From positions 26,016 to 90,015 of the forward strand of contig CAYOTK010000004.1 of NCBI GenBank assembly GCA_964406895.1: a DNA stretch of 64,000 nucleotides, given 5' to 3'. Both the position numbers and the translations under genes were made by a program. Position 1 is the first letter of the stretch; every line of letters starts with the position of its first letter. The DNA is from an uncultured Candidatus Saccharibacteria bacterium. GTDB lineage: Bacteria > Patescibacteriota > Minisyncoccia > Phycocordibacterales > PALSA-1337. Shown piece after piece: positions 1 to 41,740 of the stretch. Under the pieces are notes generated by a model, which saw only the letters and a list, made by a program, of their open reading frames with translations, made no database searches and was not told the DNA's origin.

Positions 1-1236
1 CCCCATAGCGGGAAGACCGTCCTCATGGGTTTGCTTCGGGGCCTGTTGCCCCGGGACAAATTCATGGTTGCAGAGGCGGCACCTGATGGTGAAGGTATCA
101 CCGGATGGTCTGCCGAAGCGACGCAGGAGCTTGTCAAAGCGGTTCGCCGCAAGGGCAAGTTCCTGCCACAGTTCGTGGATTGGGTGTGCGCCTCGGTGCA
201 TAACTCCACGATGCCGATCACTCTCGTCGACTTGGGCGGAATGCTCTTGGACGATGAGGGAAAGTTCTCCGCCACGGGTGTCAGGCTGACAACGGAGAAT
301 GAACGAATCATGCGGGAATGCAGTCACTTGATCGTGATTGCGAACCCGAGCTACATGGAGTCGGCGGTGCCTACCTGGATCGCTGAAGCCAATCGTCTGG
401 GGGTCAAACCCTTGGCCATCCTCGAGTCGGTTCTTACGGGAGCTGATGATGAGATTGTAGCTGGGGGTGAACTCCCGATGCGAGCGCGTATCACGAAGCT
501 CGACCGGGAAAATCCTCCCCAATCCACAACCGCAAAGGTGGTCGTGGATTTGATCCTTTCACTCACAACAACGGAAGTCGTTGTGAAGGATGGTTCGGAA
601 GTCGCGGATGTGAATTTCCCGCGACTTGCCGAAACGCTCAACCTGCCGGTAAAAAACGGCGGGGCGGATCGCGACTGGCGACCTTCGGATCTTCCGAAAG
701 TACTGGCTGAAGCCAAAAAGCTTCTGGCCGGAAAATCGGAAGTGCGCCTTTGGGGAAACACTCCTCTCGGCGCACCGTACCATGTCCTCGCGGCAAATCT
801 GTCGCAGGAGGTTTGGTACGCTGATCCGAAAGTTCCGGGTGGCTATGTAGCTATTCCGGAAATGCCGGCCAGCACGGGAACACTCCTTGACTGGAAAGTC
901 GGGGAACGGGATGACAGCTCTCTCGTGGAGTTTGTCATTCCTGGGCAGGTGTTCAATGCGAACACTCTGCCCACACTCACCTTGCCGGAAGTGGACACTC
1001 GCAATGGTGTCGTAATTTCCGGCAAAGGACCACGTTGGCTCACCGGCGCAATCGCTCGGGCTTATGCTCGGGCAGGCGCCGCCTGGGTAGCGGTCTTTGA
1101 ACCGCGCGAGTCCAGCCGGATGCAGACTGACGGAAAGAAATGGTCGGAACACCATTCTGGCCAAGCTCCGGCAATTGTGGTCTACACGCGAGAGCGAGAC
1201 CACACCATCGGAACGATCATTCCGTTCAGTCTGTAA
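1..1236 (+). CDS. P-loop GTPase-like protein, paralog A (5' partial; continues upstream of window)
   Basis: Frame 1 is open from nt 1 and reads PHSGKTVLMG before the ATG at 25, so the Walker A/G1 lies at the window edge. ITLVDLGG is a G3-like DxxG motif. The N-terminus (PHSGK[ST]..L..LLP....FGAPDGE..W..EA.Q.LVK, hhhVDxGG) and the C-terminal block (GP.WL...IAR.YA.AGA.W.AVF.P.ES.R.Q...G.KWS..H) are homologous to ORF 7006..8715. Codon usage is GC-rich. Confidence 0.6.
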   Translation, partial: PHSGKTVLMGLLRGLLPRDKFMVAEAAPDGEGITGWSAEATQELVKAVRRKGKFLPQFVDWVCASVHNSTMPITLVDLGGMLLDDEGKFSATGVRLTTENERIMRECSHLIVIANPSYMESAVPTWIAEANRLGVKPLAILESVLTGADDEIVAGGELPMRARITKLDRENPPQSTTAKVVVDLILSLTTTEVVVKDGSEVADVNFPRLAETLNLPVKNGGADRDWRPSDLPKVLAEAKKLLAGKSEVRLWGNTPLGAPYHVLAANLSQEVWYADPKVPGGYVAIPEMPASTGTLLDWKVGERDDSSLVEFVIPGQVFNANTLPTLTLPEVDTRNGVVISGKGPRWLTGAIARAYARAGAAWVAVFEPRESSRMQTDGKKWSEHHSGQAPAIVVYTRERDHTIGTIIPFSL

Positions 1237-1370
1237 CAATTCAAAGGAATGGCAACTTCCTGATCCTTGATGGACAAATCGTTGCAGAAGCTTCGGAGAA
1301 GTGCTTCGGTTTTACTTCTCCACTTTATTCAACTCACGAATGGTTCGTGGGTTGACTGAGAAAGGTTTTC

Positions 1371-1871
1371 ATGAAAAAAGTTCTTGAGGCGATTGAGTTC
1401 GCTTTTTTGAAACACTTGGGCCAAGAGCGCCCAGGAGGTGAACCACAATTCGCACACGTGCTCCGAGTCGCCAAGTTGGCGGAGGAATGCGCGCAATGGC
1501 TGTCGCCAGAATCCGGTGAAGTTTTGGTCGTGTCGGAAATCCTCCACGATGTGTTGGAGGACACGCCGACGACGGACGCAGAAATCTGCAAGAAGTTCGG
1601 TGATGAGGTTGCCAAAATCGTCCGCGCTCTCTCGCATGAAAGCGAGGAGGAACCGGATGAGGTATATCTCCGCCGAGTAGCTCGGGGAGGTAAGATTGCA
1701 GTGTTAGCCAAACGGTTTGACCGACTGGACAACCTGCGATCGCTTGCCACAATGCCAGCGGAATTTCGCGAGCGAAAACTCGCGGAAGTTCGCTCGGCAC
1801 TTCCCATCTGGCGAGAGATCGATCCGGATGGAGCTTTGGAAATTGAGAAAGGAGTGGAGAGTTATGGATAA
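1371..1871 (+). CDS. Small HD-domain hydrolase, SpoT/Mesh1-like (small alarmone hydrolase-like)
   Basis: HLGQERPGGEPQFAHV...SEILHDVLEDTPTTDAEICKKFGDEVAKIV...VLAKRFDRLDNLRSL follows the RelA/SpoT hydrolase HD pattern block by block (H..Q.RKSGEPYI.HP / LLHDV(I/L)EDT / FG..VA.LV / KLADR.HNMR.L). It is 166 aa with no synthetase domain. Confidence 0.65.
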   Translation: MKKVLEAIEFAFLKHLGQERPGGEPQFAHVLRVAKLAEECAQWLSPESGEVLVVSEILHDVLEDTPTTDAEICKKFGDEVAKIVRALSHESEEEPDEVYLRRVARGGKIAVLAKRFDRLDNLRSLATMPAEFRERKLAEVRSALPIWREIDPDGALEIEKGVESYG

Positions 1872-2118
1872 CCGACCACTTTACGAACTCAAAATCAGAG
1901 CAACTTTTGTCCTTAGACTCCCCGAACCAGTTCGCGCTGAATTCGTGGAAATCGCGAGGGCAAAGTCTCCTTCGGCGAGTTTTGATCTCGCCCAGTTCGC
2001 CGCGCGAGCACGCGGAATTGTTAGTACGGAAGTCATTGCGATCGCAAAAGCTACGCGTTGGCTCTCAGTGATTCGCCGTGATCATGGCGATCAAGTGTTT
2101 GAACAGATTGTCGCTTAA
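1864..2118 (+). CDS. Ribbon-helix-helix (Arc/MetJ-like) DNA-binding protein
   Basis: The ATG at 1864 overlaps the HD gene stop (ATGGATAA), suggesting translational coupling. N-terminus MDNRPLYELKIRATFVLRLPEPVRAEFVEIARA matches the Arc-type beta-strand/helix signature (..R.P..L...L...A). It is 84 aa. Confidence 0.45.
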   Translation: MDNRPLYELKIRATFVLRLPEPVRAEFVEIARAKSPSASFDLAQFAARARGIVSTEVIAIAKATRWLSVIRRDHGDQVFEQIVA

Positions 2119-2136
2119 CGTGGTAACGGGGGTTTT

Positions 2137-2352
2137 ATGCCAAAGAAAAAAAAGATGCCCAACCGACGGATAAAGGTAAAAGGGTTCACATTGGAAGTAG
2201 TTTCTCCGAAATGTCCTTTTTCCGACGCTACGACGGAGGAGCGAGCAAAGGATCAGGCAGAAATGATTGCCAATGGAGGAATTCATCCTGCATGGTTCTC
2301 GGTTACAGCCGAAGACGTCCAACGCGAGTTAGATAAGGACAAGCTCAATTAG
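2137..2352 (+). CDS. Hypothetical small basic protein
   Basis: 71-aa ORF starting 19 nt after the RHH gene, same strand, with GC-rich codon usage. No recognisable motif. Confidence 0.3.
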   Translation: MPKKKKMPNRRIKVKGFTLEVVSPKCPFSDATTEERAKDQAEMIANGGIHPAWFSVTAEDVQRELDKDKLN

Positions 2353-2387
2353 GAGCACATCGCGCCACAACGCGAACAATTTCAATC

Positions 2388-2420
2388 GGCGAGTTTTTGT
2401 GGAAACTCGCCCACTTTTTT
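2388..2420 (+). terminator. Rho-independent terminator followed by an AT-rich promoter-like patch (to ~2470)
   Basis: GGCGAGUUU / AAACUCGCC stem followed by CACUUUUUU. Then cctataatatttgtttttttaaaattgtagg forms an AT-rich patch inside the otherwise GC-rich island, upstream of the MoxR gene. Confidence 0.45.
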
Positions 2421-2530
2421 GAGCCTATAATATTTGTTTTTTTAAAATTGTAGGCTCTTTGAGTAAACGCCACAAAAATGGCGACGGCTTCAAATAGGTG
2501 CGCCGGAATAAGCACCAGTGGAGAATCACA

Positions 2531-3742
2531 ATGAGTGATATCGTCCAATTGGGGATTGATCTCGCCCCCAAGGTGTCCGCTGTAATGACGGATGTCCTAA
2601 CGCGAAATCTCGGCCGTGAGGCAATTGTGCGGGCAACAATGCTCGCGCTCGTTTCGGGCAGACCGGCGTTTTTCCTGGGCAGTCCTGGGATCAACAAAAC
2701 CGGGACGGTGCAGGACATCGCCCGTCGGGTTGACGGTGCGGTGTTTTTTGACGCGCTCATGCCGACCATCGTGTCGGTTGAGCAACTGTTGGTGGAGAGC
2801 ACCTCCATCGTGGAGTCCCCGATAACTGATGGAGGTAAATCCATCAGCACCAGCGACAAGCTTGGGCGAGCAGCAAACGCGCACATTCTGTTCGCCGACG
2901 AGATTTGGAAAGCAGAACCTCGAGTTTTGCAGACCGTTTTGGACTTGGCGAAAGGCGACGGCGTTCGGCACGAGGGACGGATGATTAAAACCCCGCTTCT
3001 CGCTTTTGTGGCGGCCAGCAATGAGCTGCCGGATTCTGAAGGAAACCTCGGAGCACTGTGGTCACGAATGACCATTCGAGCCGAGGTGAAGTCCCTTGAC
3101 CGGGCCGGAAAAAAAAGCCTGGTCGCGACGCGATTGAACCGGCAACAGGCCGGCAAGTCAGCGCCGACAGGGGCGACTCTGACACTCGCTGAAGTGGAAA
3201 CGCTTCGCGAGGTTCGGCCGTTCGTGGAGGTTGGTGACGATATCGTCGAGATTGTACTCGACCTTTACCAATCGCTCCTTGACGGGGACAACGCCGGGTT
3301 CGCCTGGCTATGGGCCGACGACCGACGGTTCGGTCGTTGCATTGACGTTTTGCAGGCCAGTGCACTCCTTGACGGGAGAGCGCGAGTCGGCAAGCAGGAC
3401 CTTCGGGTTCTGGAGTTCTTGCTCTGGGACACCCCCGAGCAGATCCCCGTCGTCAAAAGCAAAATCGCCCCGCTCTGTCGGACACCACTGTCCGACGCGC
3501 AGGAGCTCGTAGACACACTCTTCGCTCCAGCGGGAGTGGTGGCGGAAGCGCTGGCTGGCGATCGGAACAAGATTGTTCCGGCCATCACCCAGTTTGAGGA
3601 GGCTGAGAAGGAACTCAGCCGGCTCGCGGGTGAGGCGAGTGGAACGGAAAAGGAGCAGATCGGCACGCTCCTCGCCAAAATTGCCGAGGAAAAACAGAAC
3701 GCGGTGGCGATCATACTTGGCGCCAAGCGTTGGAAAAAGTAG
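2531..3742 (+). CDS. MoxR-like AAA+ ATPase with atypical Walker A
   Basis: Start taken at the second ATG (MSDIVQLG), with GGAGA 8 nt upstream. Walker A is LGSPGINKTG (N replaces the conserved second G). Walker B is ILFADEIWKA. The MoxR sensor region DEI.KA.P.....LL....E......G......P..F..ASNELP parallels DEINRA...TQ.ALLEAM.E..V......-....F.VIATQNP. Confidence 0.7.
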   Translation: MSDIVQLGIDLAPKVSAVMTDVLTRNLGREAIVRATMLALVSGRPAFFLGSPGINKTGTVQDIARRVDGAVFFDALMPTIVSVEQLLVESTSIVESPITDGGKSISTSDKLGRAANAHILFADEIWKAEPRVLQTVLDLAKGDGVRHEGRMIKTPLLAFVAASNELPDSEGNLGALWSRMTIRAEVKSLDRAGKKSLVATRLNRQQAGKSAPTGATLTLAEVETLREVRPFVEVGDDIVEIVLDLYQSLLDGDNAGFAWLWADDRRFGRCIDVLQASALLDGRARVGKQDLRVLEFLLWDTPEQIPVVKSKIAPLCRTPLSDAQELVDTLFAPAGVVAEALAGDRNKIVPAITQFEEAEKELSRLAGEASGTEKEQIGTLLAKIAEEKQNAVAIILGAKRWKK

Positions 3743-3754
3743 AAAGGATCGGAA

Positions 3755-5491
3755 ATGCAAACGAAAGCCAGCCCGCTCATGCGGCAGGAGTTGCAGAAAC
3801 TCCTGGTCACGGATGCGGACGCTTTCACGGCGCTCCGCTTCCTGCGTCACCGCGAGCGCACCCCAGCGCTTTCGGAATTGGAAAACCAAGGAGGAAACGA
3901 GGTGCCCGGTTTTGCCGGAGCGCTTTGTGACCTCTACCACTCACTGTGGACGGAGACACCCAAGGTCAAGGAAGAAATTCCGGCTGACCGGCGGTTCTTC
4001 GCGGAGATTCTTCGGGGGGCGCTGGCATCGTCAGCGTTTGATGGTCTCCACGCGCAGACACAGTACTCAGACATCAAGTCGGTACTCGGCACCCTTTCCA
4101 TGGGTGATGCAGTGCTGGCAACGATGTCTCCGGAGGAAAAGAAAAATCTCCAAGACACTGCTAGTGCGCAGAAAACAGCGGATGAAGCCGAGGACGAGGC
4201 CAAACAGGCCGAGAACGAAGCTGATTCTGCTGAAGCACTCGCCCAGATGGTGGAGCAATCCGCCGGACAGGGCGAGAGCAGTGAGGGCGGACAAGAATCA
4301 TCCGGCGATCCTTCGGGAGAAGCCGAGGGTGGTTCTGGAGCGCCCAAATCAGGCAGTCCTTCAGGATCGCCAAGTGGTGGTTCACACGGAGCAGTTAGCG
4401 GAATGACGCCCGATGAAGCGCAGGCACTTGCGAACGAACTCGCTCGACAAGCGAGGGAGGCGCGTGCCAAAGCCAACTCGGCACGCGAAACTGCGAACAG
4501 CGCCAAAGAGGTCGCCGAATCCATCGCCAACCAACTTCTGGGGCAACCCGGAAGCGAGGAGGCGATGGAGAGAGCGAAAGATCTGGCGCGTCGTGGATTA
4601 GCCGCTGCTCAAAAGGCCCAAGCGAAGGTTGAGGAAGTATCCAAGACCATTGACTCGTGGGGGCTTGAGGAAGGCGAGCTCGTCCAGATGGGCATTCCGG
4701 AGGCCATGGGGCTTCTAGAAAAAATGCGCCAGAGCACGGCGCTCAAGAAGTTTGCTCAACTCCTGGGCCGAATCAAAAAGATTGCCGCTCGAAAAGCGGC
4801 GTCCGATGATAAAGCCGATGGAGTGCGAGTCACGAAGCCGGAAACGGGTCATGATATCAAAAGAGCGCTTCCGAGGGAGCTCACTGCTCTCTCGCACCCA
4901 TCGCTTCGTTTCGGCGCACTGACGCGCTGGAGCCGAGGAGAACTCGCTCTTCGGGGCGAGGAATCAAAGAGGAAATTGGGCGAGGGGCCGGTCGTGGTCT
5001 GCGAAGACTCGTCAGGCTCTATGGACGGGGTTAAGCAACAGTGGGCAAAGGCTGTAGTTTTAGCACTGGCCCATTACGCAAAGCTTCGTAACCGATCGTT
5101 CGCGTGGATCATGTTTGACACTGCTATCCAGCGGAGTCGCATTTACACTCGCGGGCGATTAACGCCCAAGGACCTTTTGGAAATCGCCGAGTCACGCTCA
5201 GGAGGTGGGACGAATTTTGAAATCCCCCTTCGCGAAGCCGTCAAAGTGATTCGTGGTGCTGGCCTTAAGAAAGCCGACATTGCGTTCATCACCGACGGGG
5301 ATTGCGCGATTTCGGACGAATTCGTTCGGGAGTTTGGTGGGGTCAAGAAGGCATTGGAAGTCAACGTGTTCGCAGTTCTCTGCGATGTTGGCCATACTGC
5401 CGAGGCGACCATTGCAAAATTCTCGGACAGAATTGAACAGGCTTCATCTTTCAACGAGGATGAAGCGGAACAATTTTTCCAAAAACTCTGA
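3755..5491 (+). CDS. von Willebrand factor A (vWA) domain protein with acidic/coiled-coil N-terminal region
   Basis: Starts 12 nt after MoxR, with AAAGGA upstream. The C-terminal vWA domain has a complete MIDAS: VVVCEDSSGSMDG (DxSxS), SRSGGGTNF (T) and AFITDGD (D). The N-terminal ~380 aa are Ala/Glu/Ser/Gly-rich low-complexity and coiled-coil. Confidence 0.75.
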   Translation: MQTKASPLMRQELQKLLVTDADAFTALRFLRHRERTPALSELENQGGNEVPGFAGALCDLYHSLWTETPKVKEEIPADRRFFAEILRGALASSAFDGLHAQTQYSDIKSVLGTLSMGDAVLATMSPEEKKNLQDTASAQKTADEAEDEAKQAENEADSAEALAQMVEQSAGQGESSEGGQESSGDPSGEAEGGSGAPKSGSPSGSPSGGSHGAVSGMTPDEAQALANELARQAREARAKANSARETANSAKEVAESIANQLLGQPGSEEAMERAKDLARRGLAAAQKAQAKVEEVSKTIDSWGLEEGELVQMGIPEAMGLLEKMRQSTALKKFAQLLGRIKKIAARKAASDDKADGVRVTKPETGHDIKRALPRELTALSHPSLRFGALTRWSRGELALRGEESKRKLGEGPVVVCEDSSGSMDGVKQQWAKAVVLALAHYAKLRNRSFAWIMFDTAIQRSRIYTRGRLTPKDLLEIAESRSGGGTNFEIPLREAVKVIRGAGLKKADIAFITDGDCAISDEFVREFGGVKKALEVNVFAVLCDVGHTAEATIAKFSDRIEQASSFNEDEAEQFFQKL

Positions 5492-5502
5492 AAGAGGAAA
5501 TT

Positions 5503-6156
5503 ATGGAAAATATCGTTGTAACGCTTCGAGCTGACCGGGGCAACAAGTTCGATGAAGACGGTCAGTGTATCGGGACCCATGAAAGGTCAATCGTCTTCAT
5601 GCCACGCGAGGTCAAGCCTGACCAAGTTGTCCGCGTCCGACTCATACCGATCATGGATCGAATGACGGGGAAAGAAAGAGTGGACAAAGGTGGCAGAGTT
5701 ATGTACCGCGCCGAACTCGCACCAGCGGAACTGCCGAGGAAATGCGAGGAAGACATTGCAAGGCAAGCAAAAGCCTTGCGGCAAGGCAAACCCTTTCCGA
5801 AGGATCAAGGCGAGGCACTCGCCAAATCCATATTTGGTAAGCGATTGGAACGTACTGACCACAAGTGGTACTACTTTTTCGCTGATGCCATCTTGGGGTC
5901 GCGGTTTTCACCCGCTGCCCTATTGATCTTAGAGGGGATGCCGATGTCTTCTGGTAGCTCATACGATGAGCTTATGGGGTGGTTGATCGGTAAAACTCGC
6001 TGGGGTTACAACTGGTACCACTTCCGAGAATCAGGAAAGATCGGAAAGGATGAGGTTCCGGAGTTTCCAGAAATAGAGCTCCGGACACTTATCGCGCGCC
6101 TTGAAAAAGGCGAATGGGTCATCGCAGACCTCTTGGTTAAGGAGGAACCGCGATGA
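5503..6156 (+). CDS. Hypothetical protein with TRAM-like (OB-fold) N-terminus; candidate vWA-MoxR-associated partner
   Basis: Starts 11 nt after the vWA gene. N-terminus VVTLRADRGNKFDEDGQCIGTHERSIVFMPREVKPDQVVRVRLIPI resembles the TRAM pattern (G.G.....g.vvFV....PGE.V.v.I). The rest is unassigned. Confidence 0.4.
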   Translation: MENIVVTLRADRGNKFDEDGQCIGTHERSIVFMPREVKPDQVVRVRLIPIMDRMTGKERVDKGGRVMYRAELAPAELPRKCEEDIARQAKALRQGKPFPKDQGEALAKSIFGKRLERTDHKWYYFFADAILGSRFSPAALLILEGMPMSSGSSYDELMGWLIGKTRWGYNWYHFRESGKIGKDEVPEFPEIELRTLIARLEKGEWVIADLLVKEEPR

Positions 6157-6191
6157 AAGGTTTTTGGTGCTGCAACACCAGTGGTTAAACC

Positions 6192-6235
6192 GGACGAATT
6201 TTTGCAGAAATTCGTCCACTTTATTCAATTCATAA
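6192..6235 (+). terminator. Hairpin after the TRAM-like gene (possible terminator)
   Basis: GGACGAAUUU / AAAUUCGUCC 10-bp stem, followed by ACUUUAUUCAAUUC, which is only moderately U-rich. Confidence 0.35.
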
Positions 6236-6327
6236 CTTCGGTTACGGATTGATAGAGTTTCAGCTCGAACCGCGTCCGCAGGCGCAACAATTTGCGGAAA
6301 AATTGCCCTTGAAAGGAGGGCTAACAG

Positions 6328-6774
6328 ATGAATTACAAAATCATCCCCGGATCCGTCGGGGTCCGGAAGTCGTTTCAGGTTACCTGCGGACTGCGCGTCG
6401 GGTACGACGCAGCCGCGGTGACTCACACCGGCGAGGAGGCCGTCGAGTCCGTCCTCGAACAATTGAAGTTCCGTGCGGCTGCGGGACTGCCGTACCTAAC
6501 CGGTACAATCACAACCGGAGAGGTCGTGTATGCATGGTCGGATGGGCCGGGCAAGGCCGGCGGCGGGCACGAGCCCGTCATCCGGTACGAGGGAGAAGTC
6601 AACCCCCTGTACAACAAGAATCTTCTCGAGAATCACGACGAGGTCGTCGCGATCTTGAACGAGCTCGGCATCGCCCTCGGAGCGGCGCTCGGGCAAACGC
6701 GGATCTACCTGGCCTACGACGGCCAGACGTGGATCCTCGAGGCGGAGAAGGCGGTTACCCCGACGGGTAACTAA
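6328..6774 (+). CDS. Hypothetical protein
   Basis: 148-aa ORF on the same strand within the island, with GGAGGG upstream. No recognisable motif. Confidence 0.35.
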   Translation: MNYKIIPGSVGVRKSFQVTCGLRVGYDAAAVTHTGEEAVESVLEQLKFRAAAGLPYLTGTITTGEVVYAWSDGPGKAGGGHEPVIRYEGEVNPLYNKNLLENHDEVVAILNELGIALGAALGQTRIYLAYDGQTWILEAEKAVTPTGN

Positions 6775-7005
6775 TTTCTCCAAAGGTTGTGTGAACCTTC
6801 AAAACATTCTGCGTCCCGCGTGGCGCAAAAAAATTTGGTTAACGGTGAGTGTATGCGGACACCCACAAAACTTTCAGCACCGGTCGGGTTGATCGGTGCT
6901 GGACTTTATTGAGTCCGTCCGCTTTTAGCGGGTTGATTCAAAAAGTTAAAGACAGCGACGAGAGTCGCCCGAGCCAGTCGGGTACTGGCATGAAAGGATA
7001 GCGGA

Positions 7006-8715
7006 ATGAAAAATATCCGCCGAGTAGTGGTTTGCGGACCCCCGCATTCGGGAAAGTCTGTGTTCCTAGCCAATCTCCAACGGCTATTGCCGGTTGAGCA
7101 TCACATGCTCATTTTCGGCGCTCCCGACGGTGAGTGGCATTGGAGCAACGAGGCCAACCAGAGCCTCGTCAAAAACCTGCGGGAAAAGAAAGGCTTCTCG
7201 CAGGACTGGTGCCGTCAAATCGTAACAGCGATCCAGAGTGCCGATCAGAAATTGGTACTCGTGGATACGGGTGGCAAGCGATTGCCACCGAACGATGAGA
7301 TCTTCTCGTCGTGCGATGGTTTCATCATTATTTCCTCATCGCCGGAGGAAATGATTGAGTGGCGGAAGTTCGGCGAGAGTTTCGGATGCCAGTGCTTGGC
7401 CGAGCTTGACTCGGTTTTGCATGGAACGTCAGAGCTCTATCCAGACCGCAAGGACGGCATCATCCGCGGTCAGATATGCGGTCTCGAGCGCGGGAAGACC
7501 ATTGAGTCGCCTGTGATGGACGCGGTGGCCAGTCGGCTTTGCGAAGTCATCAAAGCTAACGCTGAAATGACCAAGGCCGAACTTCTCGCCAACATCAATG
7601 GCGTGAAGTTGGTAGACCATCTGGGAATCACAGATCGCTCGGATCCGTATCTCGGAGTGAGGCCCTGGCACACGGCTCCTGCACTCAAACTCACGGCCGT
7701 GGCGCGCCGACTGGAAATCGTGCGAATCTGGAATGTCCGCACAAGTTTCCTGTCCTGCGCCTTCGCCTCGATGCTCCCAGGAAAAGTCCAGCTCTTCGGC
7801 GTGTCCGAGGGGTATGTGGAATTACCTGAAGTCGTTCCGGCTGGGAACGCTTCCGGCGATGGGGTGGAATGGGAAGTTACCGAACTGGCCGAGTATACCT
7901 TAGTGGAATTCCGCAAAACACGATTCTTCACTAAGGAACTGCTGGCGAGCGTGGTACCGCCCGTAGTCAATTCTCGCAAGGGGGTTGTGCTGTCTACGGA
8001 CGGTCCGCCCATCTGGCTAGACGCGACGATCGCAAGGTCGTATGCAAAAGCTGGCGCACCATGGATTGCTGTCTTCGTTCCGGTTGAGTCCGGACGAGTC
8101 CAGCCGTCTTTGGACGGCCAGAAATGGAGTGATGTGCACCCACCAGACGGACCGTGCGTGATAATTTACGGTCCGGAAAATCGGCTGGGAGAAATCATTC
8201 CCGTGCCGATTGCCCTGCTTAAATGGCAAGGGGGTGGACGTAAGTGGCGACTCGGGTCGGGCGAGCCAGTCGTGGATCGACAGAACAGCCACCTTGCCAC
8301 GCACGGCACGGTTTTGCCGTTCGTGGGTGAAGCCTTGCTCCAGATTCAATCCGGAGGACAAGACTTCATCGCCGAAGAAGTAGGTTTTGGCGAAGCCATC
8401 GGGCAGACGATTTGTGTCGCCACCCGCGAGGATGACGACATCGTTTTCGCCCAGCGGCCAAACCGAGCCGGACTCACACGGTTCGTGAAAGGTCGCGAGC
8501 CGGAGTCGTGCTCGACGGTTGTGGTTTGTCTAAAGCGAGCGCGGGAGGGCGGATACATCCTCCTTACTGCGTACATTGGTAGACGCACACCGGCCGAACC
8601 GTGGGACATGGAATGGGCAACGGATCAGTCCGTGCCTTTCTGGAATTCCCATGCTCTGATTTGGGGGCACGAATCAACAATACCAGGAACTGAAACGAAG
8701 GTTTGTTCTTGGTGA
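7006..8715 (+). CDS. P-loop GTPase-like protein, paralog B
   Basis: G1 is VVVCGPPHSGKS and G3-like is LVLVDTGGK. The N-terminal domain and a C-terminal block (GPPIWLDATIARSYAKAGAPWIAVFVPVESGRVQ...GQKWSDVH) are paralogous to ORF 1..1236. An additional ~170-aa C-terminal extension is present. Confidence 0.65.
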   Translation: MKNIRRVVVCGPPHSGKSVFLANLQRLLPVEHHMLIFGAPDGEWHWSNEANQSLVKNLREKKGFSQDWCRQIVTAIQSADQKLVLVDTGGKRLPPNDEIFSSCDGFIIISSSPEEMIEWRKFGESFGCQCLAELDSVLHGTSELYPDRKDGIIRGQICGLERGKTIESPVMDAVASRLCEVIKANAEMTKAELLANINGVKLVDHLGITDRSDPYLGVRPWHTAPALKLTAVARRLEIVRIWNVRTSFLSCAFASMLPGKVQLFGVSEGYVELPEVVPAGNASGDGVEWEVTELAEYTLVEFRKTRFFTKELLASVVPPVVNSRKGVVLSTDGPPIWLDATIARSYAKAGAPWIAVFVPVESGRVQPSLDGQKWSDVHPPDGPCVIIYGPENRLGEIIPVPIALLKWQGGGRKWRLGSGEPVVDRQNSHLATHGTVLPFVGEALLQIQSGGQDFIAEEVGFGEAIGQTICVATREDDDIVFAQRPNRAGLTRFVKGREPESCSTVVVCLKRAREGGYILLTAYIGRRTPAEPWDMEWATDQSVPFWNSHALIWGHESTIPGTETKVCSW

Positions 8716-9295
8716 AAAAAGTGTTAGAAAGTGCACCCAAAAAACTTTCCTCCGCTACAGAGCGTTGTGGCAAACATACGCATATGTAATTGTTCTTTTG
8801 GTCAACGGTAGTTCTGATGCGTCAGGGTTACCACAACAAAATTCCCAGCACCGCCTTGGTCGGTGGCGCTGGACTCAATTGAGTTCATGATTTTAGAGGA
8901 TCGTGAATTCATAGAGTATTACGCAGTGAAATAAGCATTAAAACAAAAAGAAGGCCCCATAAAGCTATAGGCCAGCATGACGGAATCAGATCAGGAAAAA
9001 GTGCGAGTGATTGCAAAATCTCTCTCCTCTAACCCTTCGACAAGCTCAGGATTATCCCGAGCAAAGTCGAGGGACAAACACGATTTCTTGGTTTGTCATC
9101 CAGTCGTTATGACCTGTAGCTTTATGGGGCTTTTTCATAATTCAAGACAATATACATTGCCACAATGTCAACATGGTTATTAGGTTGCTTAAAATATGGC
9201 TTATTATATAATTGATGCATGGTTCGAAACTCGATCCACCTTCACACTAGTGAATGGTAGGCCGAGACCATTTATTAGCATTAACAATAAATATA

Positions 9296-38351: not shown

Positions 38352-40166
38352 ATGTCATTATTTAGCAAATTATTTGGGAAAAAAGAAGAATCACCGCTGG
38401 TGTCCATATTGCCAGAGGAAATTTATCAAGCAGGCGTTCTAGAACTAAAAGACGTCATTGCTCCATCAGCGCTCAAAATAAGCCCGAAGGAAATGAATCT
38501 GGGTGAGAAAATAGGTCGTACTTTGTTCGTTATTTCATATCCTAGATTCCTAGACGAGAATTGGTTCGCGCCCATCATAAACCTAGACAAGGTTTTCAAT
38601 GTTTCAATATTCATACATCCTGTGGATACAGCAAAAATACTACGACACTTCCAGAAAAAAGTCGCCGAGGTTCAAAGCCAAATACAAATAAGAGAGCGCA
38701 AGGGTCTAGTTAGGGATCCTCAGCTCGACACAGCGTATCAGGATCTAGAAGCCTTGAGAGATCAACTCATGCAAGCACAAGAACACCTTTTCGATGTTGG
38801 TGTATATATAAACATCTTTGCCGACAATGAAAATGAGTTGGACAAACTAGAATCAGAAATAAAATCTATACTAGAATCAAAGCTCGTCTATGTTAAACCC
38901 GCTCTATTCCAGCAAGAACAGGGGTTCAAGAGTGTTATTCCAATAGCTGACGACTCTTTGGCGGTACACTCCAAACTCAACTCTTCACCATTGTCGAGCT
39001 TATTCCCATTCGTTTCTTTCGATCTAACATCTGACAAGGGCATACTTTATGGTATTAACAGACACAATTCTTCACTCGTTCTTTTCGATCGTTTTTCTCT
39101 CAACAATTACAATTCTGTAACATTTGCCGTTGCTGGTTCTGGTAAATCCTACTGTACGAAACTTGAGATTCTGAGAACACTCATGTTCGACACAGATGTC
39201 ATAGTTATAGATCCGGAAAAAGAATATGAGTATATGGCAGAAGCAACAGGAGGTAAGTATTTCAATATATCACTCAATTCTGAACACCATATCAATCCAT
39301 TTGATCTGCCAATACCGAGAGAAGACGAGGCTGCTTCGGACGTATTGCGTTCAAACATTGTTAACCTGGTCGGTCTATTCAGGATCATGTTGGGTGGATT
39401 GACCCAAGAAGAAGACGCCATCATAGATAGAGCCATAACAGAAACATATGCCTTGAAGGATATAACGGCTGATTCTAATTTCAAAAACGTTGAACCGCCA
39501 CTATTGTCTGATTTTGAATTAGTCTTGGCAGGAATGGAGGGCACTGACTCTCTCGTCCAGAGACTTACCAAATATACAAAAGGCACATGGGCCGGATTCA
39601 TCAATCGCCCATCGAACGTAGATATAAATAAGCGCTTCGTTGTATTCTCATTGCGAGACATGGAAGACGAATTGAAGCCTGTTGCCATGTATATAGTTAC
39701 ACATTATATATGGAACGCTATTCGCAAGAATTTGAAAAAGCGCTTATTGGTTATTGATGAGGCTTGGTGGATGATGAAATCAGAAGACACGGCATCATTC
39801 CTATTTGGTCTGGCCAAAAGAGGTCGTAAATATTTCTTGGGATTGTCTACTATTACTCAGGACGTGGACGACTTCTTACGATCTCCATATGGATTACCCA
39901 TAGTTACGAACTCTTCTATACAGATATTGCTCAAACAATCTCCTGCGGTCATCGATAATATTCAAAAAACCTTCAATCTCACAGATGAGGAAAAATACTT
40001 ACTTCTAGAGTCTGATGTGGGGGAGGGCATATTCTTCGTTGGACTAAAACACGTCGCCATAAAGATTGTTGGTTCATATACTGAAGATCAAATAATAACC
40101 ACAAATCCGGCACAGATATTACAGATAGAAAGATCGAAGAAAGAACTAGAACAGGCAAGCCGCTAA
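38352..40166 (+). CDS. virB4: Type IV secretion VirB4/TraC-family ATPase
   Basis: Walker A VTFAVAGSGKSYCTK and Walker B RLLVIDEAWWMM, plus a C-terminal RGRKYFLGLSTITQ sensor region. 604 aa. Confidence 0.75.
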   Translation: MSLFSKLFGKKEESPLVSILPEEIYQAGVLELKDVIAPSALKISPKEMNLGEKIGRTLFVISYPRFLDENWFAPIINLDKVFNVSIFIHPVDTAKILRHFQKKVAEVQSQIQIRERKGLVRDPQLDTAYQDLEALRDQLMQAQEHLFDVGVYINIFADNENELDKLESEIKSILESKLVYVKPALFQQEQGFKSVIPIADDSLAVHSKLNSSPLSSLFPFVSFDLTSDKGILYGINRHNSSLVLFDRFSLNNYNSVTFAVAGSGKSYCTKLEILRTLMFDTDVIVIDPEKEYEYMAEATGGKYFNISLNSEHHINPFDLPIPREDEAASDVLRSNIVNLVGLFRIMLGGLTQEEDAIIDRAITETYALKDITADSNFKNVEPPLLSDFELVLAGMEGTDSLVQRLTKYTKGTWAGFINRPSNVDINKRFVVFSLRDMEDELKPVAMYIVTHYIWNAIRKNLKKRLLVIDEAWWMMKSEDTASFLFGLAKRGRKYFLGLSTITQDVDDFLRSPYGLPIVTNSSIQILLKQSPAVIDNIQKTFNLTDEEKYLLLESDVGEGIFFVGLKHVAIKIVGSYTEDQIITTNPAQILQIERSKKELEQASR

Positions 40167-40170
40167 ATTC

Positions 40171-40620
40171 ATGAAAAAAGTAAATAAAAACACTTGGACA
40201 AAGTTATATGTCACAGCGGGTATTATAGATATCGTTCAATTAATCATTGATTTAACCGGCGTTGGTGTTGCCATAAACACTTTTGCCGATCCTGTAATTG
40301 GGATTGGATTTATTGCGTATCTGAATCACATTGGGGTAAGTGTGTTTAAGCATCCTTCTAGATTTGCATCAATGGTTGGTGTGGGTTTATTAGAAAATTT
40401 CACAGGTGGAATTGCACCAGCATGGATAGCTGATATATTCTACATTCATCATTCATACAAGAAAGAACTTGCTCAATATGAAGAAGATGAAAAAATAACA
40501 CAGTTAACATCAAATACTCGACCCACCATGTACGACGGGGGAATGAGGAATCCAGAAAGTTCAAACACAAATCAAAACGAACCCTTGGTCAATAACGGGT
40601 ACAGAAGGCCACAAAGATAA
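40171..40620 (+). CDS. Hypothetical small membrane protein
   Basis: 149 aa with hydrophobic segments. Immediately downstream of virB4. Confidence 0.4.
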   Translation: MKKVNKNTWTKLYVTAGIIDIVQLIIDLTGVGVAINTFADPVIGIGFIAYLNHIGVSVFKHPSRFASMVGVGLLENFTGGIAPAWIADIFYIHHSYKKELAQYEEDEKITQLTSNTRPTMYDGGMRNPESSNTNQNEPLVNNGYRRPQR

Positions 40621-40678
40621 ATATAAATTCAGCTAGCTGTGAATTGATGATATGTGACGTTCACGATACAATATAGTC

Positions 40679-41740
40679 ATGATTTCTCTCTTTTCGCAAA
40701 AAAATAAAATAATAAAGGAATATATCGGTATTTCTATTTTTGCTCTGTTATTTTTCAGTATTTTTTACACAGCACGAGCACAAGGTTTACCATCAGTAAT
40801 TGGCGGACTTGAGCTTACACCATCAACGTCTAGTCCCGCCCCAGGACAAACAGTAACAATTACCGCTCAAAGCTTCAGTTCAAACATAAATTCCGCTAAA
40901 ACAACATGGTCAGTGGGTGGCAAAGTATTACAATCAGGCACAGGACTTACAAAACTCGACATCGTTGCACCTGTTTTGGGTCAAAAAAAGACAGTTTTAT
41001 TGACAATAGTCACTAGCGAAGGGCAGACAATATCAAAAAGCATAGACATAATTCCTGGGTCCATAGATATGATCGTAGAAACGAATGGCTACAAACCGCC
41101 GTTATTTCTAGGCAAACTATCTCCCGTATATCAAAACGAAGTCAAAATAATCGCAATACCCCACATTGCCATCAATACAAAAGAAGAATTAGACCCCAAC
41201 AAATTGGTGTATCAATGGAAGAAGAATGATCAAGTACTACAGAGTCAATCTGGTTTCGGTAAGAATTTCGTCACCGTTTCTGGAGACATAATACCGAGGC
41301 CTTATATCGTAACTGTTACAGCAAGCACACAGGATGGTAGATATTCTTCGACCGGAGCAGTAAATATTGCAGAATCAGACCCACAAATATCTTTCTACAT
41401 TAACGATCCTTTATATGGGATTCTTTTTAACAAAATAGCAGACAGCAACATAAGGATTGATACAAACAGGAGAGTGAACGTTCTTTCAGTGCCTTATGGT
41501 TTCAATCCGAACACGGATCTTAGCAACATTGTTCTTGATTGGATAATAAACGGTGAATCTCATCAAGAATTAGCCAAGAGCACATCAGTTGTTTTGCGCG
41601 CACCTGAAGGCAAGGCAGGATACTCGAACATACAATTACAAATTAGCAATTCAGAGAAATTACTACAAAGAGCGTCTTCTGGTTTTTCGACCACTTTTAC
41701 AGCGAATAAAAGTTCAGCAGATAATAATGTGACATTTTGA
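40679..41740 (+). CDS. Hypothetical secreted protein
   Basis: Signal/TM IGISIFALLFFSIFYTARA. 353 aa, beta-rich composition. Confidence 0.45.
   Translation: MISLFSQKNKIIKEYIGISIFALLFFSIFYTARAQGLPSVIGGLELTPSTSSPAPGQTVTITAQSFSSNINSAKTTWSVGGKVLQSGTGLTKLDIVAPVLGQKKTVLLTIVTSEGQTISKSIDIIPGSIDMIVETNGYKPPLFLGKLSPVYQNEVKIIAIPHIAINTKEELDPNKLVYQWKKNDQVLQSQSGFGKNFVTVSGDIIPRPYIVTVTASTQDGRYSSTGAVNIAESDPQISFYINDPLYGILFNKIADSNIRIDTNRRVNVLSVPYGFNPNTDLSNIVLDWIINGESHQELAKSTSVVLRAPEGKAGYSNIQLQISNSEKLLQRASSGFSTTFTANKSSADNNVTF

Follow-up and report, generated by a model that had tools for sequence, protein, structure and literature searches.

Results and discussion

Gene content of the island

Three closely spaced genes lie on the + strand of the 64-kb window (the whole stretch of DNA analysed), encoding a RavA-type MoxR AAA+ ATPase (2531-3742; 403 aa, P-loop GSPGINKT), a vWA protein with a C-terminal ViaA/CoxE-type vWA domain (3755-5491; 578 aa; assigned with Pfam, NCBIfam and PHROG) and p217 (5503-6156; 217 aa), which combines an N-terminal TRAM/S1-like OB fold (residues ~1-78) with a novel alpha/beta C-domain. 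The short intergenic distances pointed out in the sequence-only reading were found as gaps of 12 nt between MoxR and vWA (AAAGGATCGGAA) and 11 nt between vWA and p217 (AAGAGGAAATT), both resembling a ribosome-binding site. A consensus scan marked a terminator-like hairpin (2388-2411, +) and a promoter-like site directly 5' of MoxR (2419-2448, +), both pattern matches only, and a further terminator-like hairpin at the 3' end of the three-gene unit (6192-6217, +).

The remainder of the island, which that reading had held to be unrecognisable, proved to contain several assignable proteins, all encoded on the + strand. The first (1-1236) is a P-loop(AAA)-Csx3 protein (Pfam Cas_csx3, 1.6e-12), a paralogue without the C-terminal X domain described below; its real start is 27 nt before the window, giving a protein of 420 aa with N-terminus MPKIAIGGPPHSGKT (full-length translation taken from locus L001, 4472-5734). 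It is followed by a SpoT/RelA-type HD hydrolase (1371-1871; 166 aa; HD_4) with the HD..ED motif present (Pfam HD_4, 2e-12; NCBIfam spoT_relA, 1e-17; phrog_990, 8e-24), found upstream of MoxR in eight independent locus groups. Overlapping its end by 8 nt is the gene for a basic ribbon-helix-helix-like (RHH) protein of 84 aa (1864-2118; weak Pfam Arc match, 0.085, residues 14-35), which is conserved beside HD in L009, L019, L021, L023, L030 and L032 and was detected as an 84-aa homologue in seven of the eight locus groups with HD. A basic 71-aa ORF to which no function was assigned (2137-2352) has a called gene at the matching position in L001 and L002.

Downstream of the three-gene unit, the family search suggested earlier for 6328-6774 (p148) returned a candidate PII-fold SAM lyase or SAM-AMP-lyase-like enzyme, the match being full-length but weak (E ~0.13); W70, E82 and Q123 align with SAM-AMP lyase W64, E71 and Q108, the conserved Glu/Gln pair is present, and a SAM-AMP-lyase-like protein occurs in several loci of the island. 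The last protein (7006-8715; 569 aa) joins a P-loop domain (AAA_18) and a Csx3 domain to an X domain (residues ~396-569) with a RelE/BECR-like fold. It is intact in six locus groups, with fragments or the P-loop domain only in L011, L030 and L032. Both P-loop-Csx3 proteins match the type III CRISPR accessory family C3a67 (PADLOC AAA-Csx3; 9e-39 for the shorter and 2.5e-49 for the longer), and the histidines of A. fulgidus Csx3 are replaced in the aligned stretch of the island Csx3. The 64-kb window contained no Cas10, CD-NTase or other signal-generating enzyme and no CRISPR array.

Downstream of these genes lies a structured, CU-rich non-coding RNA (8950-9135, +), supported by its folding energy (MFE z = -10.3) and by covariation. 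It is closed by a stem of 23 bp and carries an invariant CU-rich core (CUCUCUCCUCU) as well as a U-run on its 3' side. Among nine aligned sequences 93% of cells were paired (31-45% in slid controls) and 15 of the 41 pairs showed compensatory changes. The RNA matched no Rfam family and is a new covariation-supported structured RNA that often accompanies the island: it is linked to 8 of the 14 p217 loci, was not found in L007, L009, L019 and L021 even with filters off, and is present in L013 without MoxR-vWA.

The three-gene unit

The gene order vWA then p217 was kept in all 14 independent loci, and MoxR lay upstream of vWA-p217 in each of the 11 loci with sequence available. Such recurrence is beyond chance; MoxR, vWA and p217 form a genuine operon, inherited as a unit without exception. 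The neighbourhood search proposed with the sequence-only reading thus upheld its view of MoxR, vWA and a third partner as a real, co-inherited unit in a strongly conserved neighbourhood.

Among Pfam families the MoxR protein best matched bpMoxR (PF20030, 9e-19), followed by AAA_lid_8 (4e-13) and AAA_5 (7e-9); it also matched NCBIfam RavA (2.7e-32) and, over the AAA+ module (residues 14-315), the structures of E. coli RavA (E 5e-28). The sequence-only reading had read the P-loop correctly as GSPGINKT, while its suggestion that NTP binding could be abolished is unlikely to hold, because the N is conserved in all homologous loci (sole exception D, in L032), it falls at the A of RavA (GPPGIAKS), and the remaining motifs, namely Walker B (DEIWKA), sensor-1 (AASNELP) and the arginine motifs, are intact and common to MoxR and RavA. 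As N or D is present in every relative and is maintained with the other ATPase motifs in lineages only ~65% identical, we regard GSPGINKT as a lineage signature and not as decay.

The vWA protein matched Pfam VWA_CoxE (1e-5), NCBIfam ViaA (1e-11) and phrog_24053 (7e-54). Its MIDAS, described from the outset as intact, is complete (CEDSSGS ... GGGT ... ITDGD) and conserved in most relatives, a simple regular expression having failed at the central threonine or the final aspartate in four loci (L019, L028, L029 and L031). The acidic stretch of residues 1-380 (pI 5.07) combines a helical N-domain, which is conserved, with an acidic low-complexity linker of Gly/Ser and a coiled coil resembling an alanine zipper.

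No family in Pfam, NCBIfam, PADLOC or PHROG matched p217. Its confident AlphaFold model (pLDDT 89.8) agrees with the TRAM-like start noted from the sequence, the N-terminus being an OB fold nearest to TRAM/S1 domains with matches spanning only the first ~55-80 residues; the C-terminal domain had no match. Among 1.84 billion representatives the family forms 125 clusters at 50% identity, of which p217 is the shortest member and most are 450-1065 aa long, so that the third subunit is the evolutionarily variable part of the trio (217 to 1065 aa). Most members show two separated matched stretches; Zn-ribbon-rich inserts and variable tails are present in the long forms, 10 of which contained no Pfam domain. 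The OB domain has an invariant residue, D61, in an exposed loop. A housekeeping identity for p217, named beforehand, together with an unconserved neighbourhood, as what would undo a conflict role, did not emerge from these searches, and the partner is unrecognised and lineage-variable, as are the third components of the ternary systems with which it had been compared.

Composition and distribution

The trio sits in a GC-rich island of ~10 kb (GC3 0.55-0.79 vs 0.31-0.43 in host genes). MoxR and P-loop-Csx3-X of the window share 87% and 85% identity with their L007 counterparts, compared with 60% for PolA and 58% for T2SSE. The island is therefore compositionally foreign, and its proteins have diverged less than the housekeeping proteins of the host, a pattern seen in most, not all, of the Patescibacteria loci examined. 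Strong purifying selection could explain the high conservation of MoxR, transfer not being required. The island adjoins the same TrmB gene in many lineages, an arrangement as compatible with vertical inheritance or a dedicated regulator as with mobility, and neither flanking att-like repeats nor an island-borne integrase was found around it. A GTDB pattern search retrieved 5 of 185,579 species with the patterns used, four being Patescibacteria/Saccharibacteria MAGs and one (L019) being labelled Gammaproteobacteria; nearly all attributable loci with p217 homologues belong to Patescibacteria, as does every homologue that carries an organism name. The p217 family had no match in IMG/VR viral contigs.

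Relation to known systems

MoxR-vWA-centred ternary conflict systems comprise four classes, VMAP, iSTAND, FtsH and beta-propeller (Kaur, Burroughs, Iyer and Aravind, 2020; PMC7159879), and Csx3, S1/cold-shock OB domains and variable third components are known from such systems (PMC7159879). The trio shares with them a MoxR AAA+ protein, a MIDAS vWA protein and a constant third gene with highly variable regions; in both, the P-loop of MoxR is non-canonical, the best Pfam match of the MoxR here (bpMoxR) is a further point in common, and some ternary systems also contain Csx3 and RNA-binding domains of OB fold. The parallel drawn in the sequence-only reading needs correction, however, as the trio fits the defining features of none of the four classes. 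The third component is a new OB plus alpha/beta family instead of VMAP-C, an inactive STAND NTPase, FtsH or a propeller; the vWA protein lacks a C-terminal effector or propeller and MoxR an N-terminal extension of VMAP type; the P-loop reads GxPGxN/DKT and not GXXXTAKS; Csx3 resides on separate P-loop proteins instead of being fused to vWA; and the hosts are unicellular ultrasmall Patescibacteria instead of multicellular bacteria.

The closest solved and curated relative of MoxR-vWA is E. coli RavA-ViaA. RavA has identical Walker B and sensor-1 motifs and likewise a non-glycine residue at the N position of the P-loop, and ViaA shares the MIDAS motif. The trio differs in the size of MoxR (403 aa without a LARA domain vs 498 aa in RavA), in its dedicated third subunit and in an entirely different genomic context, and scores fell far below the equivalog cut-offs (RavA, 112 vs 681 bits; ViaA, 45 vs 500 bits).

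Ro60 (TROVE plus vWA/MIDAS) binds Y RNA, in which a stem joins both ends and a pyrimidine-rich unpaired region and a U-tail are present. The likeness to a vWA/MIDAS gene beside a long-stem, pyrimidine-rich, U-tailed RNA is architectural only; a TROVE domain is lacking here, Rfam gave no match to Y RNA or YrlA, and the RNA occurs in only about half of the loci.

MoxR-vWA pairs are also found in Bacillus phage 0305phi8-36 (gp66/gp63), Moorella phage MTATph1 and Acidianus two-tailed virus. Residues ~300-566 of the vWA protein are 36-37% identical to proteins of the large phages 0305phi8-36 and MTATph1 (218 and 177 kb), where the MoxR gene is adjacent to vWA or two small ORFs away. In contrast to GSPGINKT, the phage MoxRs have canonical P-loops (GPPGTGKS, GPPGTAKT), and a partner of the p217 family is missing from these phages, as are Csx3 and HD neighbours.

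Among type III CRISPR accessories are CARF-RelE (Csm6-type cluster 3; Shah et al., 2019; PMC6546367) and SAM-AMP lyase (PMC12255297). Csx3-X mirrors CARF-RelE in fusing a sensor domain to a RelE-like fold. Unlike such accessories, the island has no cas10, other cas genes or CRISPR array nearby and other residues stand in place of the Csx3 histidines; the X domain and p148 are assigned from weak fold or profile similarity, and the type III-like proteins adjoin the MoxR-vWA-p217 operon without being members of it.

Possible function

Several functions can be weighed for this island. It might be a counter-defence island of a mobile element or episymbiont that disarms the type III CRISPR-style signalling of a host or competitor, the Csx3/Crn3-like, SAM-AMP-lyase-like and HD proteins acting as signal-degrading or signal-binding modules and MoxR-vWA-p217 as a phage-type chaperone module. 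The foreign composition, the lack of cas10 in the window and the viral relatives point this way: besides the vWA and HD matches given above and the phage vWA genes close to MoxR, these are phrog_19600 for MoxR (2e-28) and phrog_23674 for the X domain (9e-25), the latter being 42% identical to ORFs of Rak2-like jumbo phages. Phage SAM-AMP lyases are anti-CRISPRs (PMC12255297), as are viral ring nucleases (PMC13148439). We nevertheless consider this function unlikely, given the absence of the p217 family from IMG/VR viral contigs and of structural, replication or integration genes from the island, the conserved chromosomal site beside TrmB in many lineages, the ordinary P-loops and missing p217 partner of the phage MoxRs, and a fused RelE-like RNase fold that suits an effector better than an inhibitor. 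A smaller probability still attaches to an RNA or ribosome quality-control RNP, Ro60-Y RNA- or Midasin-like, serving stress response instead of immunity, in which vWA/MoxR would load or remove the OB protein on structured RNA or ribosomal particles. The linked RNA, with its long stem, pyrimidine-rich single-stranded core and U-tail, and the OB/TRAM-like fold of the third subunit are consistent with it, as are the role of the Midasin MIDAS domain in pre-60S ribosome assembly (PMC7159879) and several neighbours whose relatives are tied to translation (SpoT-type HD, the RelE-like fold, and the X domain with homologues in phage tRNA regions). Against it stand the missing TROVE domain and Y RNA match, the four loci without the RNA and the one with the RNA but no MoxR-vWA; rarity and foreign composition are unlike core RNA metabolism, and no partner of the RNA ligase, kinase-phosphatase or exonuclease type came to light.

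It is highly improbable that the trio is an ordinary chaperone of RavA-ViaA/CoxD-CoxE type that matures a metalloenzyme or membrane complex, with p217 a lineage-specific accessory and the neighbours incidental. The kinship with RavA and ViaA and the additional VWA_CoxE match are outweighed by the low equivalog scores, the missing LARA domain, the lack of a candidate client enzyme in any locus, the strict linkage to Csx3, HD and RHH genes, and the sparse distribution and foreign GC content. We disfavour most strongly, as barely credible, a degenerating prophage or island fragment with an inactive ATPase betrayed by its deviant P-loop. Damaged copies do occur (a split vWA gene in L004 and L017, incomplete Csx3-X and HD in L011 and L030), but the N/D P-loop persists together with all other motifs in lineages only ~65% identical, most loci keep full-length ORFs, and protein identity exceeds that of housekeeping genes.

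Our preferred explanation, to which we give about an even chance of being right, is that the trio and its neighbours constitute an RNA- or translation-directed accessory conflict system, a fifth, Patescibacteria-specific kind of MoxR-vWA ternary system. In its favour are the operon layout, the conserved motifs, the OB/TRAM-like fold, the gene linkage, the rarity and variability of the third subunit, the restricted distribution, the foreign composition, the linked RNA, the published parallels, and conflict-type neighbours (the Csx3 family C3a67, the RelE/BECR-like fold, the SAM-AMP-lyase-like p148 and HD_4). Counting against it are the lack of a signal-generating enzyme or CRISPR array in the window, the replaced Csx3 histidines, the recurrent site beside TrmB, the missing att-like repeats and integrase, and the possible role of purifying selection in MoxR conservation. 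MoxR would act as a hexameric RavA-type AAA+ ATPase with the lineage-specific P-loop GxPGxN/DKT, and the vWA protein as a ViaA-type adaptor whose MIDAS grips an acidic residue or peptide. The OB protein p217 may bind RNA as a sensor or adaptor, candidates being the RNA encoded in the island, rRNA or tRNA, or a transcript of an invader, and the MIDAS could hold either p217, with D61 as a candidate ligand, or its target. ATP hydrolysis by MoxR would then assemble, release or reset the vWA-OB complex. A conflict or defence role for the trio is plausible from its context, in which the nucleotide-signal modules and the RelE-like domain would join it in defence or in the control of a toxic effector.

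Gene order and co-inheritance of the trio

The genes encoding the MoxR ATPase (2531-3742, + strand, 403 aa), the vWA protein (3755-5491, + strand, 578 aa) and the third protein, p217 (5503-6156, + strand, 217 aa), are separated by spacers of only 12 nt (AAAGGATCGGAA) and 11 nt (AAGAGGAAATT), confirming the close spacing described in the sequence-only reading, and each spacer resembles a ribosome-binding site. Consensus scans, which yield pattern matches only, placed a terminator-like hairpin (2388-2411) and a promoter-like site (2419-2448) directly 5' of the MoxR gene and a further terminator-like hairpin (6192-6217) directly 3' of the p217 gene, a pattern compatible with a discrete three-gene unit. 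An 18-nt direct repeat, TCCACTTTATTCAA(C/T)TCA, was found at 1319-1336 and 6215-6232 (+ strand). Its two copies are intergenic, lying 5' of a SpoT-type HD hydrolase gene (1371-1871) and 5' of the gene for a 148-aa protein (p148; 6328-6774, + strand), each directly after a terminator-like hairpin, and may represent a shared operator or promoter element.

The gene order recurs in related loci. Look-ups and scans together yielded 14 independent loci encoding members of the p217 family, and the vWA gene lies directly 5' of the p217 gene in all 14, with MoxR 5' of vWA in all 11 loci for which the sequence is long enough; the neighbourhood is thus conserved elsewhere. A SpoT-type HD_4 gene is found 5' of MoxR in eight locus groups, seven of which also contain an overlapping gene for a ribbon-helix-helix-like protein of ~84 aa (L007/L008 have an unscored 65-aa ORF at this place). 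A gene of ~570 aa combining a P-loop (AAA_18), a Csx3 domain and a C-terminal X domain with a putative RelE/BECR-like fold (P-loop-Csx3-X; 7006-8715 in the window) is intact in six locus groups, while L011, L030 and L032 retain fragments or the P-loop domain only. A second P-loop plus Csx3 copy, fused or split, is usual, along with small ORFs, ten of which, taken from other loci, gave no match in Pfam. The far left of the loci is occupied by a large protein of 850-1047 aa followed by a divergent TrmB regulator. The island of the window is circularly permuted, with the p148 and P-loop-Csx3-X genes located after the trio and not before it as in L008, L009 and L023, and in L022 a DEAD/HA2 helicase replaces HD-MoxR-vWA.

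The MoxR ATPase and the vWA protein

The MoxR protein matched bpMoxR (9e-19), AAA_lid_8 and AAA_5 in Pfam, the bpMoxR profile (PF20030) scoring 67.8 bits against a cut-off of 27 bits. The NCBIfam RavA model also matched (2.7e-32), and E. coli RavA structures aligned with residues 14-315 (5e-28), the alignment ending at ~315 of 403 residues. All the residues characteristic of a MoxR-clade AAA+ ATPase are present and align to RavA, i.e. the Walker A Lys/Thr, the Walker B DE (DEIWKA), the sensor-1 Asn (AASNELP) and the arginines, the Walker B, sensor-1 and Arg-containing motifs being common to both proteins. The Walker A motif reads GSPGINKT, as had been noted, with N or D in the family preceding the lysine in place of G or A. 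The earlier suggestion that this Asn could abolish nucleotide binding holds up less well. It aligns to an Ala in RavA (GPPGIAKS), it is kept in the MoxR proteins of related loci (GSPGINKT, GEPGLNKT) down to ~65% identity, and the other motifs are intact, so that loss of nucleotide binding appears unlikely from the alignments. An Asp variant (GSPGVDKT) is confined to a single clade with a long-form partner. Since the residue is conserved across relatives, the idea of a degraded P-loop was dropped, and this pattern of conservation marks the N/D residue as a selected lineage signature.

The vWA protein matched the Pfam VWA_CoxE/VWA_2 families and the NCBIfam ViaA model (1e-11). Its MIDAS is complete (CEDSSGS, GGGTNF and ITDGD, supplying DxSxS, T and D), in agreement with the earlier reading, and most of the homologous loci retain it, although the threonine or the last aspartate escaped a simple regular expression in L019, L028, L029 and L031. 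The acidic coiled-coil N-terminus also stood, the first ~380 residues having a pI of 5.07 and comprising a conserved helical domain of ~120 aa, a linker that is variable, acidic and rich in Gly/Ser, and a coiled coil resembling an alanine zipper. The vWA domain itself (Pfam 404-528 of 578) is the last domain of the protein in all relatives. The vWA reading frame is interrupted, giving two ORFs, in two metagenomic copies (L004, 284-2019; L017, 1517-3157), reflecting either population-level inactivation or an assembly error; one of these copies shares 99.96% identity with the window.

A third protein from a dark family

The third protein had been proposed to begin with a TRAM-like OB fold and to belong to no recognized family, and both statements were borne out. 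No family, housekeeping or other, was matched by p217 in Pfam (E≤0.1), NCBIfam, PADLOC or PHROGs, its C-terminal half matched none in Pfam even at E≤5, and the p217 family profile had no match in the PDB. The Pfam TRAM profile (PF01938) likewise gave no match at E≤0.1, yet a confident AlphaFold model built from 24 homologues (pLDDT 89.8; pTM 0.77) predicts a five-stranded OB barrel at the N-terminus that is superimposable on TRAM domains (TRAM/S1-type), followed by an alpha/beta domain without detectable relatives (residues ~79-217).

When 1.84 billion representatives were scanned in full with HMMER, 125 clusters of the p217 family were recovered, 113 of them at E≤1e-10; no relatives were found in IMG/VR. 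Most members are considerably longer (450-1065 aa) and contain, from N- to C-terminus, the OB domain, a cysteine-rich (Zn-ribbon-like) insert of ~220 aa, a conserved C-domain (~300-445) and, last, a tail that varies. Ten long forms searched against Pfam yielded no domain. p217 is therefore the minimal member of a dark family that combines constant modules with highly variable regions.

Island neighbours

The trio is surrounded by a GC-rich island of ~10 kb, the rest of which had been read as matching no recognized family. The P-loop-Csx3 proteins and the SpoT-type HD_4 hydrolase could be assigned; p148 has no family match. Both P-loop-Csx3 proteins, which are operon neighbours outside the trio, matched AAA-Csx3 (C3a67; PADLOC PDLC01059) across their P-loop and Csx3 domains (2.5e-49 over residues 4-358, and 9e-39), a family of type III CRISPR accessory proteins defined previously (PMC6546367). 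They fit this profile, yet there is no adjoining type III cas cassette in the window or the fetched loci. Indeed, neither cas genes nor CRISPR arrays were detected across the window and the fetched loci, which is as far as these genomes were visible, and no cyclase is visible in the window. Both proteins also matched the A. fulgidus Csx3 structures, but within the aligned stretch the window proteins have other residues in place of the AfCsx3 histidines, so binding seems more plausible for these domains than ring-nuclease activity. A literature search on Csx3 and Patescibacteria returned only works that do not mention Csx3.

The only PDB profile matches of p148 were to the SAM lyase/SAM-AMP lyase family, over the full length and at a weak E of ~0.13. 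Members of that family are marked by a PII-like trimer fold, with the catalytic Glu located in the T-loop and a Gln in the B-loop. [quoted passage not shown] Relatives of p148 are more widely spread in Patescibacteria, often beside TrmB and often with no MoxR-vWA nearby. A further island protein of 274 aa, encoded upstream of the window in the overlapping locus L001 (3444-4268), had a single PDB match covering most of the 139-aa chain of Csx15, a type III CRISPR ring nuclease/sensor and thus of the same theme as its neighbours; with an E of 0.66, the assignment was rejected as too weak. A Pnkp/RtcB-type RNA-repair operon was also considered and dropped because no ligase was present and no supporting literature was matched, no prior description of Csx3 with RtcB or RNA repair having been found.

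Structured RNAs

The last island gene is followed by a structured RNA (8950-9135; -91.7 kcal/mol, MFE z = -10.3), which G-U pairs assign to the + strand. Its terminal stem comprises 23 bp, its unpaired CUCUCUCCUCU core is invariant and mimics the anti-Shine-Dalgarno sequence, and it has a U-run. Homologues were found 130-280 nt 3' of the p217 gene (~3 kb in two cases) in L011, L016, L017, L025/26, L028, L029 and L030, so that 8 of the 14 p217 loci contain the RNA; it also occurs in L013, after a p148-helicase pair and with no MoxR-vWA, and was not found in L007, L009, L019 or L021. In an alignment of nine sequences, 93% of the cells in 41 pairs were standard, versus 31-45% with slid partners, and 15 of the 41 pairs showed compensatory double changes, a number reached by none of 500 shuffles. 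No Rfam family matched even at E≤10, the sole IMG/VR match to the core motif was not the RNA, and the purine-rich complement of the CU core had no above-chance target in the window.

Upstream of the island, ~1.3-1.4 kb before window position 1 (L001 3072-3225), is a second, smaller CU-rich structured element that overlaps a doubtful 55-aa ORF call. Its invariant UGUUAUUCCUCUUC pairs with a downstream purine-rich, Shine-Dalgarno-like GAUAAGAGGGG, and 9 of 31 pairs are compensatory among four sequences; it could be an SD-sequestering leader.

Composition and distribution of the island

Outside the island, the window has the content of a typical Patescibacteria chromosome, encoding DnaA, PolA, PNPase, the CCA-adding enzyme, type IV pilus and T4SS genes, and tRNAs. 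Among these host genes, and unrelated to the trio, are a TraG/VirB4-type P-loop ATPase and T4SS pilin genes (38352-43047, + strand). The island (window 1-9140) has a GC content of 55% versus ~37% for the host part (9500-64000), and the GC3 of island genes (0.55-0.79) exceeds that of host genes (0.31-0.43). Most other hosts with visible flanks likewise had an island of higher GC content than their own, a contrast that was clear in L001, L015, L019 and L021, weaker in L022 and L023, and absent in L009 and L011. Identity between the window and L007 was also higher for island proteins (MoxR, 87%; P-loop-Csx3-X, 85%) than for PolA (60%) and the T2SSE ATPase (58%). Together, these contrasts in composition and identity argue for horizontal exchange. 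Simple mobility, on the other hand, is disfavoured, as neither att-like direct repeats around the island nor an island integrase were found and the position adjoining TrmB recurs in many lineages.

With the patterns used, p217 matched in only 5 of 185,579 GTDB species, represented by four Patescibacteria/Saccharibacteria MAGs and one MAG labelled Gammaproteobacteria; all named homologues are from Patescibacteria MAGs. The Gammaproteobacteria-labelled MAG (L019, CAZEKG010000005.1) contains a complete island of ~60% GC between flanks of ~42%, reflecting either misbinning or a transfer beyond Patescibacteria.

Comparison with known systems

The sequence-only reading had suggested the trio as a candidate ternary conflict or regulatory module. 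A MoxR-vWA pair co-inherited with a variable third partner does work in the manner of the ternary systems described by Kaur et al. (PMC7159879), yet it lacks the defining features of all four classes set out there. In VMAP systems the third protein has a VMAP-C domain, for which p217 gave no match in the Pfam release that holds bpMoxR from the same paper and, we assume, the VMAP-C model. The MoxR of that class carries an N-terminal extension with WxhapG and PsWRxa motifs (PMC7159879), whereas here the AAA+ module starts from ~residue 14 with no Trp in the first 40 residues; and its vWA proteins carry variable C-terminal effectors, whereas those of the window and its relatives end at the vWA domain. 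The third component of iSTAND systems is an inactive STAND NTPase, which p217 is not, and the FtsH AAA+ of the FtsH class has no counterpart here, whether in the island itself or among related loci. The beta-propeller class, from which the Pfam bpMoxR model derives, strictly has a C-terminal beta-propeller on the vWA protein and a third protein with TPR/propeller regions (PMC7159879); here the protein stops at its vWA domain, and neither a propeller nor a TPR was matched. Membership of this class, prompted by the bpMoxR match, was dropped for want of a propeller. The MoxR of that class matches the bpMoxR profile and has a GXXXTAKS P-loop, the non-canonical form present in two ternary classes (Kaur et al., PMC7159879); the MoxR of the trio scores above the bpMoxR cut-off, but its P-loop reads GSPGINKT/GSPGVDKT.

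Nor are the two proteins equivalogs of RavA and ViaA, their scores (112.5 and 44.8 bits) lying far below the cut-offs (681 and 500 bits) and the LARA domain being missing. No paper linking MoxR to a TRAM domain was found in the library searched.

Possible function

We conclude that MoxR, vWA and OB protein form an obligate trio whose catalytic and MIDAS motifs are intact and whose third subunit varies, located in an accessory, compositionally foreign island that is rich in nucleotide-signal and RNA-directed domains. By analogy with RavA-ViaA, Midasin and CbbQO-type pairs, an acidic partner residue would be bound by the vWA MIDAS, and the complex would be remodelled by the ATPase. We propose that p217 may be both this partner and an RNA-binding adaptor or sensor, and that the trio could control, or be controlled by, the Csx3, RelE-like, HD and lyase modules in a conflict setting.

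Several rival explanations bear on this proposal. The same modules might form a counter-defence arsenal instead. An ordinary metallochaperone would be conceivable, though improbable, for the MoxR-vWA pair. A decaying remnant would account for the fragmentary P-loop-Csx3-X genes of some loci, but is very improbable and at odds with the conserved P-loop of the trio itself. A Ro60/Midasin-like RNA quality-control RNP would make use of the covarying RNA linked to the trio; compared with Ro60-Y RNA, however, the island has no TROVE match and the RNA no Rfam Y RNA match.

The most far-reaching reading is a self-contained, Patescibacteria-unique RNA-surveillance machine without Cas10. Here vWA-MoxR would load or unload the OB protein on the Y-RNA-like, anti-Shine-Dalgarno-mimicking RNA of the island or on ribosomes, while P-loop-Csx3 sensors, a SAM-nucleotide lyase and a SpoT-type hydrolase would tune a nucleotide signal gating a RelE-like RNase. 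We consider this complete scheme speculative and rather improbable.

The interest of the trio and its island lies in the new third subunit, a P-loop that is unusual yet conserved, type III-like modules occurring as orphans in episymbionts, and the new structured RNA. Experimental handles are offered by the 125-cluster dark family with its confident model, the conserved N/D P-loop and the unannotated RNA with strong covariation. MoxR-vWA ternary systems are known mainly from multicellular bacteria, and the trio would extend this paradigm to the genome-reduced, episymbiotic Patescibacteria, with a new third subunit that would point to RNA rather than to peptides or peptidases. The gathering of type III CRISPR second-messenger-type domains (Csx3, a SAM-AMP-lyase-like protein, an HD hydrolase and a sensor-RelE-like fusion) with no visible Cas10 raises the question of which signal is read or erased by these orphan modules in bacteria living attached to other cells.
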